A stretch of 5,118 bases of DNA. Origin: a virus (lineage: Duplodnaviria; Heunggongvirae; Uroviricota; Caudoviricetes). Position 1 is the stretch's first letter. Every line of letters starts with the position of its first letter. This document shows, piece by piece, positions 3,470-5,118 of the stretch. The stretch spans positions 1-5,118 of IMG/VR virus record IMGVR_UViG_3300029517_000155; one strand, given 5' to 3'. Position numbers and translations under genes: made by a program. The notes beneath the pieces were generated by a model, which saw only the letters and a program-made list of their open reading frames with translations, was not told where the DNA came from and did no database searches.

Positions 3470-3988
3470 ATGATGCACTTAAAAAACATTACTGCTGGCA
3501 ACCCTAAAACAAAAGAGCAATACCAGCTAACAAAGCAATTTAACATCAAATGGCTTTATTCAGATGATGGAAAAAACTGGTATGAGGAACAAAAGAATTT
3601 CCAGCCAGACACTTTGAAAATGGTCTATGACCATAACGGCGTTATTATTTGTATTGAAAAGGATGTTTCAGCAATTAATCCAGAGGGTGCAAGCGTCGTT
3701 GAATTACCTGATATTACAGCAAATCGCCGGGCTGATATTTCGGGGAAATGGATGTTCAAAGATGGCGTAGTGATAAAGCGAACTTATACCGAGGAAGAGC
3801 AGAGGCAACAAGCGGAAAATGAAAAGCAAAGCCTGTTGCAACTTGTCAGGGATAAAACCCAGCTATGGGACTCACAGCTACGGCTGGGCATCATTTCCGA
3901 CGAGAATAAACAAAAATTAACCGAGTGGATGCTCTATGCGCAGAAAGTCGAATCTACAGACACTTCCGGCCTGCCAGTAACGTTTTGA
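3470..3988 (+). CDS. tail fibre assembly protein (Tfa/gpU family chaperone)
   Basis: 172-aa ORF starting [19 protein letters not shown], the characteristic N-terminus of E. coli prophage Tfa proteins such as TfaE. A GGAG Shine-Dalgarno lies 9 nt upstream, and the start is 2 nt after the tail-fibre stop. Confidence 0.9.
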
Positions 3989-5118
3989 TATTGATACTGG
4001 CGGCTATCCAGTACAGCGCCGTGCCAAGATAGCGTGCTGTGGTTTCAACCTGCCTGATATCGGTAATCCGCTTTTCCGAGAACCAGAACTCAAACTGTAC
4101 CGTCGGGTCATAAACGGCAAGATGCGGCGTGGCGGTTATCTGAAAATAGCCCGGCGTCAGCTCAATCCTCGACGGTGCTGCCGGTGCGGCAACGGGCGCT
4201 GAATAATGCTCTTTCCGCTCTGCCATCACTTCAGCATCCGGACGTTCGCCAATTTTCGCCTCCCACGTCTCACCGAGCGTGGTGTTTACGAAGGTTTTAC
4301 GTTTTCCCGTATCCCCTTTCGTTTTCATCCAGTCTTTGACAATCTGCACCCAGGTGGTGAACGGGCTGTACGCTGTCCAGATGTGAAAGGTCACACTGTC
4401 AGGTGGCTCAATCTCTTCACCGGATGACGAAAACCAGAGAATGCCATCACGGGTCCAGATCCCGGTCTTTTCGCAGATATAACGGGCATCAGTGAAGTCC
4501 AGTTCCTGCTGGCGGATGACGCAGGCATTATGTTCGCAGAGATAAAACACGCTGGAGGGATCATCCGGCGTCCATTTGAGGCCAAACGACGTCTCTTTAT
4601 CGCCAAATTTAAGATACTGCTCCTCCCCGCAGTGCGGACAGGCAACATGAAAACGCATAAAATGCGGGGATTCACTGGCTGCACGCTCAATCTGGCAGGT
4701 GCCTCTCACTTTGGGCGTGGAGCCACGGATGGACTTTGGCCAGACCGAGCCTTCAATACGCTTGTCACCCAGGAACGTCGGAGAGCCTTCCTGTTCAATA
4801 TCCTCATCAAAGGCAGCAAGTTCATCATAACCCGCCACATCCACCGACTTTTCACGGTAGTTTTTTGCCGCTTTACCGCCCAGGCACCAGAAGCCACGAC
4901 CATTGGAAAAACGCTTCATAGTGAGCGTGTTATCCCGGTGCTTTTTGCCATACCACGGAGCCAGCGCCAGCAGCGACGGAATATCGCGGATGGTCGGCTC
5001 AACGTGGGTTTTCATAAAGTTCTCGGCATCACCATCCGTCGGCAACCAGATAAGGGTGTTGCGCTGCTTATGCTCTATGAAGTAGGCATAAACACCCAGC
5101 AGCATTTTGGAATAACCA
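3954..5118 (-). CDS. phage terminase large subunit (lambda gpA-like), 5'-partial at the window edge and truncated, fused in frame to a fragment of tail protein J; probably non-functional
   Basis: Minus-strand translation from the window edge ([34 protein letters not shown]..) is near-identical to lambda gpA as I recall it, through ..[11 protein letters not shown] (ending nt 4191). The frame then continues as the J-like tail [23 protein letters not shown] followed by 9 unrelated codons and a stop. The gpA C-terminal nuclease region is absent. Confidence 0.9.
3984..4190 (-). pseudogene. host-specificity/tail tip protein J internal fragment (about 70 aa), fused to the terminase fragment
   Basis: [69 protein letters not shown] matches an internal C-terminal-half segment of lambda J as I recall it (..[43 protein letters not shown]...[23 protein letters not shown]..). 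Confidence 0.65.

Follow-up and report, generated by a model that had tools for sequence, protein, structure and literature searches.

The 5,118-nucleotide stretch of DNA analysed here (the window) carries on its minus strand a frame (5117–3954) that extends past the window end, and its ATG-started part covers 5105–3954. The question raised by this locus is whether the frame represents a frameshifted terminase gene or, as proposed by the first-pass annotation, an in-frame join of lambda gpA to an internal piece of J, and, if the latter, how such a join arose and whether its product could serve any function. The frame is built as follows:

4191–5118, minus strand: 5' part of a lambda-type terminase large-subunit gene (gpA residues 81–389; BLASTP, blastn and Pfam)
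4190–4192, minus strand: junction 1, gpA codon 389 to J codon 711–712 (three-way DNA comparison with lambda A and J)
3984–4192, minus strand: internal fragment of tail-tip gene J (residues 712–780; BLASTP, blastn, Pfam and PDB chains)
3984–3985, minus strand: junction 2, where J codon 780 meets the 3' end of tfa' in antisense (compared with lambda J, L001 and L005)
3954–3983, minus strand: nine out-of-context codons, TLLAGRKCL, and a stop, antisense through tfa' (sequence and translation)

BLASTP against lambda proteins matched gpA residues 81–389 at about 99% identity, up to ...EHYSAPV, and J residues 711/712–780 at 93% identity (E=2e-40). At the DNA level, blastn aligned window positions 5117–4191 with lambda 951–1877 (97.6%) and positions 4192–3981 with lambda 17636–17847 (95.3%), and the match to J chains in the PDB was restricted to residues 708–780. 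The gpA part is 100% identical to intact terminase genes in other E. coli prophages; the start and promoter of gene A lie outside the window, which stops at gpA residue 81. Together with a base-by-base comparison with both parents, these searches placed the in-frame gpA::J join where it had been proposed, and the translation of 3984–4190 was indeed J-derived (residues 712–780). Given that gpA homology was not found beyond 4191 in any frame of the window, the frame results from a fusion and not from a frameshift.

The comparison with both parents reads ...GCGCCCGTT/GCCGCACCGG at junction 1, with TT at 4192–4191 common to both and 4190 being the first J-only base. This 2-bp overlap replaces the AP/AP microhomology suggested earlier from the protein letters, which does not exist on the DNA, and the gpA break falls at residue 389 rather than at about residue 425. 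Because TT occupies codon positions 2–3 in both genes (GTT389 of A and ATT711 of J), the reading frame is kept. The join corresponds to loss of the equivalent of lambda nt 1878–17635 (15.8 kb), from the 3' part of A through W, B, C, Nu3, D, E, FI, FII, Z, U, V, G, T, H, M, L, K and I to the first 711 codons of J, in agreement with the proposal that a single deletion with one end in A and the other in J took out the whole set of head genes together with each tail gene lying between the two. Nothing is left between gpA codon 389 and J codon 712; also missing are lom, the remainder of J and the stf constant part, and virion-essential genes are lost.

The frame was confirmed by ORF listing to be open to 3954. 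The single deletion invoked to explain it accounts for the A-to-J loss but not for the remainder, since the join of J codon 780 to tfa' removes the rest of J and gives the last nine codons and the stop (3956–3954). AA at 3985–3984 is common to both parents of this second junction (2 bp), five codons are clipped off tfa', and J goes on in L001 while tfa' goes on in L005. The J scrap amounts to 69 codons, and TLLAGRKCL is not J but antisense tfa' sequence that follows the junction at 3985/3984. With 2 bp at both junctions, neither carries the direct repeats of about 4 bp or more that characterize microhomology-mediated deletion.

Junction 1 was found in one of 5426 complete E. coli genomes (SW070917, a chromosome-level assembly) and junction 2 in none of the 5426, and no complete E. 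coli genome was found to cover at least 80% of the window. An exact scan for the 26-nt junction-1 sequence gave no match in species-representative genomes or JGI metagenomes, and the other gpA-389 junctions tested were each rare, too. Both junctions occur together in three gut-metagenome contigs (L008, L009 and L012), 100% identical and assembled independently in different ENA projects. Because SW070917 possesses an identical junction 1 while its J runs to about residue 945, followed by a different join to a tfa gene, junction 1 probably predates junction 2. L007 was considered as a genuine intermediate with junction 2 only and was rejected: it is the same as the window to 4106 and then differs by 7 clustered mismatches at 4107–4185, pointing to an assembly cross-over or a recombinant inside the J repeat.

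As had been claimed from the sequence, the ATPase region is kept and nuclease function is lost. Pfam GpA_ATPase (4.5e-39) matched profile positions 39–237 of 247, its first 38 positions lying beyond the window, and the N-terminal packaging ATPase domain of a lambda-type terminase is present and complete as far as the window shows. By contrast, GpA_nuclease covers positions 2–73 of 294, about a quarter, compared with 2–286 in lambda gpA, and the complete C-terminal endonuclease domain is absent. (D401, considered as a nuclease residue of lambda gpA, was rejected, as it is a residue of T4 gp17.) On the J side, Ig_J_second is matched at positions 2–67 of 105, so that the second Ig-like domain of J is represented by its first two thirds. 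The N-terminal tip-complex domains and the C-terminal receptor-binding domain are absent, and none of the 6 other Pfam domains of lambda J is found here. The nuclease (72 of 294 positions) and Ig-like (66 of 105) domains are both cut in mid-fold. Compared with lambda gpA and J, the two halves of the fusion are 93–99% identical to gpA 81–389 and J 712–780 but lack three quarters of the nuclease domain, the gpA C-terminus and the J receptor-binding domain. The product predicted from the reading frame would retain the GpA ATPase domain, roughly one quarter of the nuclease domain and two thirds of a single Ig-like domain of J, and gpA residues 1–80, with the Nu1-binding end, are presumed to belong to the fused ORF. 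In relatives with the same or a similar A fragment, nohD (Nu1) lies upstream, and lysis genes are present as well.

The rest of the window holds the following features:

56–70, minus strand: lambda attachment-site core GCTTTTTTATACTAA, at which prophage and host DNA meet on the bio side (an exact match, against 0.03 expected by chance)
711–2042, plus strand: dgcX, encoding a MASE4-GGDEF diguanylate cyclase and present as prophage cargo (Pfam MASE4 and GGDEF)
2138–2213, minus strand: 3' remnant of a lambda-type tfa gene (blastn to lambda 22460–22535, 93%)
2248–2466, minus strand: truncated serine DNA invertase of the Pin family, N-terminal 72 aa (Pfam Resolvase, 5.4e-18, positions 2–73 of 145)
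2493–2518, plus strand: Gin/Pin-type crossover site, TTATCTAAAACC TC GGTTTACAGGAA (exact AAACCNNGGTTT match and sequence)
2724–3467, plus strand: variable C-terminal tail-fibre segment (stf') without its constant N-terminal part (Pfam gp37_C)
3470–3988, plus strand: tail-fibre assembly gene tfa' of the invertible segment, 172 aa (Pfam Caudo_TAP, 3e-33)

Over positions 1–3985 the window matches the ybhB-dgcX-pin'-stf'-tfa' region found in many E. coli strains at 99.3–99.9% identity. The flanks of L003, L004 and L005 contain ybhB-bioA with the boundary at the lambda att core, and ybhB ends 36 nt ahead of the window start in L005. This locus forms the attR end of a lambdoid prophage remnant that occupies the attachment site of lambda in E. 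coli, on the ybhB/bio side. In relatives, the truncated invertase is annotated as a 64-aa 'recombinase family protein' and stf' as a tail fiber protein or hypothetical protein, while intact tfa' encodes 177 aa (a 534-nt gene in L005), the last five codons being those lost here to junction 2. The stf'/tfa' pair, the serine invertase and the crossover site, which resembles the gix site of Mu, follow the arrangement expected of Gin/Pin invertible segments such as the Mu G segment and the e14 P segment. Unlike those segments, however, this one has an invertase reduced to 72 aa and has lost its second half, which leaves the switch frozen, and the window shows a single gix-like site; the crossover site is also unlike the A and J break points.

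dgcX adjoins ybhB/bioA in E24377A and many other strains, and the dgcX-associated lambdoid prophages described at attB-lambda have the same chromosomal site and the same cargo by ybhB/bio (Richter et al. 2014, PMC4287979). Neighbouring prophages vary by strain and are partly decayed, as in the 29.9-kb prophage-related region of E24377A (PMC4287979). By contrast with the window, internal junctions are not described in that study, and gene A in E24377A ends at 519 codons, beside an stf fragment and without a J fragment. Decay took other courses in further strains at the same locus, strain C1 having fragments of J and lom together with an inserted P4-like element, and SL124 having IS1.

Ordinary prophage decay explains this locus best, and we hold with considerable confidence that the ORF is a non-functional relic of a decaying lambdoid prophage at the lambda attachment site; the fused ORF is most likely a pseudogene. 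In the mechanism we propose, a lambdoid prophage would have integrated between ybhC and ybhB/bio and lost its morphogenetic genes via at least two independent low-homology break-and-join events. Deletion 1 would have joined gene A codon 389 to J codon 711/712 through the 2-bp TT overlap, and deletion 2, probably later in the lineage, would have brought J codon 780 up against the 3' end of tfa', in antisense, through the 2-bp AA, with loss of the rest of J and the intervening DNA. The resulting frame would run from gpA 1–389 through 69 J Ig-like residues to 9 nonsense residues, and its product would probably lack function. Against this reading, the fused frame is intact across at least 387 codons and its A part is 100% identical to intact terminase genes; point-mutation decay has therefore not begun, and expression is conceivable.

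A comparable lambdoid remnant is DLP12 of E. coli K-12 (nohD-aaaD-tfaD), located in the argU region, where the cos-proximal Nu1 gene (nohD) and a 5' terminase fragment (the aaaD pseudogene) were likewise kept, the terminase fragment runs straight into tail-fibre assembly sequence, and no head or tail-shaft gene survives. Unlike in the window, its A fragment of about 100 codons is joined to tfa without a J piece, and it lies at another locus. A DLP12-like locus in metagenome scaffold L022 bears an A389::stf' join instead.

Decay at random places may not tell the whole story of deletion 1. Dozens of different chimeras of the gpA N-terminus are present in the protein database, with B, C, E, U, V, Z, H, K, J, lom, stf, tfa and IS1. 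Among the best 120 hits of one protein search, which constitute our break-point sample, 46 distinct continuations break at gpA codon 349 or later, 19 of them at codons 349/350, 6 at 389 and 4 at 489, and the clustering at codon 389 in this sample has a Poisson tail of 7e-6 after position correction. At the DNA level, five independent events share one break nucleotide in gpA-389, after ...GCGCCCGTT, and include 4 of the 6 codon-389 continuations from the protein sample. They comprise the join to J712 in the window and SW070917 (overlap TT), that to C330 in L019 (CGTT), that to the stf start codon in L021 (T), that to stf' in L022, and a reciprocal inversion in L023 between lambda nt 372 and 1877, with an AA/TT 2-nt overlap at both joints and 0 bases lost or gained. 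The L023 inversion joint matches ynaE over 19 nt without extended similarity, and this match was treated as chance. That the A-side break point recurs in unrelated events indicates that 'random' illegitimate recombination is only part of the deletion's origin.

Deletion 1 could instead have been produced by a hypothetical sequence-preferring break-rejoin activity, either a conservative exchange of a topoisomerase/gyrase or recombinase type or a site-preferring nuclease combined with end joining, which would act again and again at a few sites in lambdoid late genes, among them gpA codon 389. We regard this origin as a real contender, if a somewhat doubtful one; it bears on the origin of the fusion rather than on its function, and can stand alongside the pseudogene reading. 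Five events at one nucleotide of gpA-389, including a conservative reciprocal inversion, argue for it, as do the clustering at 349/350, 389 and 489 in the protein sample and the recurrence of E154, stf115 and J961 as partners of different A sites. Furthermore, overlaps of merely 1–4 bp at gpA-389 mean that homology cannot drive these events. However, many gpA-349/350 events have 4–10 bp (GGATA, AAAGGGGATA) in common with their partners, and ordinary microhomology-mediated deletion thus accounts for part of that cluster, while the sample, being the best 120 hits of one protein search, is no systematic census. Break points also lack a Chi, a gix/pix-like site or a significant hairpin. Chi-directed RecBCD end points were rejected because no GCTGGTGG adjoins the hot spots, and Pin/Gin invertase acting at quasi-sites because nothing similar to the natural site at 2493–2518 (AAACC-NN-GGTTT) is present at the break points; hairpin or cruciform formation was rejected with non-significant z-scores of -1.3 to +0.75. 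GGATA failed as a sufficient motif: 43 copies exist in the lambda left arm and 5 in A, and two of the three in the surveyed range, from codon 349 onward, coincide with observed breaks (codons 350 and 520), indicating that the motif alone does not define the sites.

Ikeda and co-workers reportedly attributed short-homology-independent illegitimate recombination in lambda lysogens to DNA gyrase. The 0–4 bp overlaps at recurrent sites and the reciprocal conservative inversion in L023 are like such recombination, a likeness that we take as a lead only. The gyrase motif published for E. coli is degenerate and long, a 130-bp profile (PMC6379681). Literature searches yielded no earlier account of hot spots for deletion in the terminase genes of defective prophages. 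A broader proposal, which we put forward tentatively and with more doubt than we attach to the origin of deletion 1, is that gene A of lambda-type prophages may hold nucleotide-precise hot spots for deletions and at least one reciprocal inversion, after lambda nt 1877 (codon 389), at about nt 1757–1760 (349/350) and at codons 449, 489, 511 and 519, which would imply a conservative sequence-preferring break-rejoin activity. Such sites, with limited partner sites (E154, J961, stf115 and others) and 1–5 bp of overlap, might drive the 'grounding' of lambdoid prophages, the window fusion being one product.

As for function, an expressed and co-opted chimera seems very unlikely; one such role would be that of a dominant-negative terminase subunit blocking packaging by superinfecting or co-resident lambdoid phages. 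Such a subunit could putatively bind NohD/Nu1 and ATP without cos cutting or portal docking, and the frame is open with an ATPase domain complete as far as the window shows, directly downstream of an intact nohD in relatives; expression of the predicted protein is speculation drawn from the sequence. Many gpA chimeras are in frame, including an independent A393::J646 ORF of 879 aa in ZYB62, but this in-frame bias is accounted for by overlaps that fall in the same codon phase (GAT/GTT/ATT codons), and the same break points also give out-of-frame continuations. Selection for a useful protein predicts spread, contrary to the rarity of this allele and of the other tested gpA-389 junctions, and both fused domains are truncated in mid-fold.

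It is scarcely credible that the joins are assembly artefacts from mis-joined repeated prophage sequences, given that junction 1 is present in the chromosome-level assembly of SW070917, that both junctions are identical in three contigs of different ENA projects, and that de Bruijn mis-joins are impossible from 2-bp overlaps, even though the exact two-junction configuration is seen in metagenome contigs only, several Logan contigs end exactly at 3985, and L007 combines junction 2 with a different J allele instead of junction 1, with mismatches as for an assembler crossing in a repeat.

As a gene, the fused ORF carries little weight: it is a further scar of prophage decay, next to dgcX, a cargo gene related to biofilms. 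'Terminase gpA endonuclease subunit' is the label that annotation pipelines give to such chimeras, which may even pass as intact proteins (879 aa in ZYB62), though the endonuclease domain is gone, and prophage-completeness callers can be misled by such labels. Chimeras of gpA are common, whereas the recurrence of the gene A break nucleotide in unrelated events is unexpected. If the nucleotide-shared break point is true, prophage inactivation in E. coli would be partly channelled through fragile or enzyme-preferred sites. Shared break points would then bear on the speed and reproducibility of prophage domestication.

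A single open frame on the minus strand spans window positions 3954-5117 and continues past the window end. Protein comparison with lambda showed that the first 309 residues visible in the window correspond to residues 81-389 of the terminase large subunit gpA, essentially identical throughout, and that the following 69 residues, ending AASINIK, correspond to residues 712-780 of the tail-tip protein J (93% identity, E=2e-40). DNA alignment matched window 5117-4191 to lambda nt 951-1877 (97.6%) and window 4192-3981 to lambda nt 17636-17847 (95.3%), and the two comparisons together place the join, confirming the in-frame gpA::J fusion proposed in the first-pass annotation but putting the gpA break at residue 389 and not at ~425. 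A frameshift in place of a fusion is excluded because no further gene A resemblance was found in the window in any frame; the 69 residues after the junction are J-derived and gpA is not resumed. The last 9 codons (TLLAGRKCL) are antisense tfa', with the stop at 3956-3954. Read from its sequence, the ORF is gpA::J::antisense-tfa', the product of two events and not of one. The outline of the earlier interpretation thus stands, while its residue number and a proposed AP/AP microhomology do not, the second junction was missing from it, and its expressed chimeric protein is speculative.

Aligning the window to the two lambda parents at single-base resolution, we read junction 1 as ...CAGCGCCCGTT/GCCGCACCGG... 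(slashes mark joins), where the gene A parent has ...GCGCCCGTT/CCTGACC... and the gene J parent ...TTCCGGATT/GCCGCACC.... The sole bases common to both parents are TT (window 4192-4191), so that AP/AP is a protein-level coincidence with no counterpart in the DNA register. Because TT supplies the second and third bases of the codon in each gene (GTT389 and ATT711), the frame is kept. In lambda coordinates the deletion covers nt 1878-17635 (15,758 bp), removing the 3' 40% of A, then W, B, C/Nu3, D, E, FI, FII, Z, U, V, G, T, H, M, L, K and I, and J codons 1-711.

A lambdoid prophage occupies the primary lambda attachment site here, and the window covers its attR-proximal end; in relatives, 36 nt separate the end of ybhB from the window start, and bioA comes next.

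Features of the locus in order (window coordinates)
56-70: lambda att core GCTTTTTTATACTAA, exact match
711-2042: dgcX, MASE4-GGDEF diguanylate cyclase
2138-2213: 3' scrap of a lambda-type tfa
2248-2466: serine invertase (Pin-family), truncated to its first 72 aa
2493-2518: gix-like crossover site TTATCTAAAACC-TC-GGTTTACAGGAA, well preserved
2724-3988: stf' and tfa'
After stf'/tfa': J scrap, then A fragment

The dgcX locus has already been described, with adjoining prophages that vary among strains and are partly decayed (Richter et al. 2014, PMC4287979). Here dgcX lies 640 nt from the att core and takes the place of the lambda b region beside attR, a position that fits the published idea of dgcX as prophage cargo. 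With the invertase cut to 72 residues the tail-fibre switch is frozen, stf'/tfa' being in the non-expressed orientation. Many E. coli chromosomes match window 1-3985 at 99.3-99.9% identity, and the sequence beyond varies by strain: SL124 has another tfa copy and IS1, strain C1 has lom and J fragments with a P4-like island, and E24377A has a 519-codon A fragment adjoining an stf fragment. The P4-like element of strain C1 (L004:14496-18739; integrase, primase fragment and Icd-like gene) is flanked by remnants of J and of a portal gene, and is another decay route at the same locus.

Junction 2 lies at 3985/3984 with an overlap of AA. Beyond it the J parent (lambda, SW070917) reads ...ATCAAA/CCGGGCCAT, and the window reads ...ATCAAA/ACGTTACTGG, the reverse complement of the tfa' 3' end as in SL124; on the plus strand, the junction replaces the final 5 codons of tfa', giving 172 instead of 177 aa. 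In E. coli SW070917, J runs on to ~residue 945 before an in-frame fusion to a tfa C-terminus. Given that this strain has junction 1 with J continuing to ~945, junction 1 is older than junction 2, and separate lineages would then have shed the remaining J through different deletions. The SW070917 gene (L001:7762-9987), a triple in-frame chimera of gpA 1-389, J 712-~945 and a tfa C-terminus, occupies the same attB-lambda locus, is followed by IS1, and differs from the window at 25 of 1138 positions. One metagenome contig (L007:3802-4595) has junction 2, with J running on upstream as a different allele, and at first seemed to contradict this order. Its identity with the window stops at 4106, some 125 nt into the J fragment, and 7 mismatches follow in 80 nt. 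The mismatch cluster lies inside the J repeat, where the assembler probably crossed into another J copy.

Among 5426 complete E. coli genomes, junction 1 occurs once (SW070917) and junction 2 not at all, and an exact 26-nt junction-1 scan of species-representative genomes and JGI metagenomes gave no match. Three gut-metagenome contigs from different projects (L008, L009 and L012) contain the two junctions with 100% identity to the window. Intact terminase genes in complete-looking prophages elsewhere match the A fragment at 100% identity, so the relic is either recent or has undergone homogenisation via gene conversion. Separately, the 5' part of A (codons 81-389) has matches in ~5150 E. coli records and the 3' part (codons 301-641) in ~3430, so that ~1700 records retain just a 5' piece of a lambda-type A gene.

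Pfam finds GpA_ATPase complete as far as the window extends, whereas GpA_nuclease is represented by no more than positions 2-73 of 294 (lambda gpA 322-389) and J's second Ig-like domain by positions 2-67 of 105; the two C-terminal pieces are each truncated within a fold. There is no lambda gpA structure for finer domain mapping (PMC9410871). No promoter-like site stands out on the ORF coding strand inside the window; the gene start, small-subunit gene and late promoter lie beyond it. The ORF is very probably a pseudogene. Co-option of the predicted chimera as a dominant-negative terminase fragment is disfavoured by the rarity of each such allele tested, by out-of-frame continuations at the same break points, and by a trivial explanation of the in-frame bias: many chimera overlaps are ends of GAT, GTT or ATT codons, and in-frame joins are for that reason frequent, with selection not required. 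The gpA::J object is an ordinary prophage-decay scar.

A search of 5.8 billion protein clusters showed that gpA-N-terminus chimeras are commonplace, their partners including B, C, E, U, V, Z, H, K, J, lom, stf, tfa, an S74 tailspike and even an internal part of IS1 insA. Of the described cases K-12 DLP12 comes closest: there the aaaD terminase pseudogene lies after nohD and runs into tfaD. In strain ZYB62 (L017:5761-8400) an in-frame fusion of independent origin, A393::J646, encodes 879 aa, and its A end lies 13 nt from that of the window; RefSeq lists this protein as an intact 'terminase gpA endonuclease subunit' despite the loss of most of the nuclease domain. The window fusion is thus a new, rare example of a well-known chimera type.

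The break points are clustered and not spread. Among the best 120 matches of one ranked protein list, which is not a census, 46 distinct continuations break at or after codon 349: 19 at codon 349/350, 4 at codons 351-388, 6 at codon 389 (the window's own break) and 4 at codon 489. Within these matches the codon-389 cluster has a Poisson tail of ~2e-8, or 7e-6 corrected for positions. At the DNA level, five independent events with differing partners end after the same gene A nucleotide, lambda nt 1877 (...GCGCCCGTT).

Events ending after lambda nt 1877
Window 4191-4192 and SW070917: codon 389 to J712, overlap TT
L019:7090: codon 389 to C330, overlap CGTT
L021:2243: codon 389 to stf start codon, overlap T
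L022:5915, DLP12-like locus: codon 389 to stf'
L023:4320 and 5825: reciprocal inversion of lambda nt 372 (nu1) with nt 1877, 2-nt AA/TT overlap at both joints

The inversion (L023:4136-6194), covering the nu1 3' part and A codons 1-389, is base-perfect with 0 bases gained or lost. It sits in a Rac-like prophage with an intact Pin-type invertase, and the A fragment beside it stops close to codon 450, where breaks also recur. Partner sites also recur: E154 with A349 and A489, both at the same GGATA/T position; stf115 with A349, A449 and A489; and J961 with A400, A489 and J366. Two further internal joins in relatives, one each at L022:4993 and L025:4783, connect nu1 (lambda 697) and A (lambda 954) through a TA overlap at a GATAC site, and J366 and J960 through a CGGATA overlap, indicating that GATA-type sites are reused outside gene A.

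GGATA is not sufficient as the sole determinant of break sites, and no Chi site, invertase-type site or significant hairpin was found at the recurrent positions. Part of the 349/350 cluster shares 5-10 bp with its partners and may reflect ordinary microhomology-mediated deletion. The codon-389 events share just 1-4 bp, and one of them is a conservative inversion; these features suggest breaks made and rejoined by an enzyme. Extended to the recurrent sites as a whole, a sequence-preferring enzymatic break and rejoining is a tentative and somewhat doubtful reading, since the sample is one ranked list. The aspect of the fusion deserving attention is that its A-side break point recurs to the exact nucleotide.
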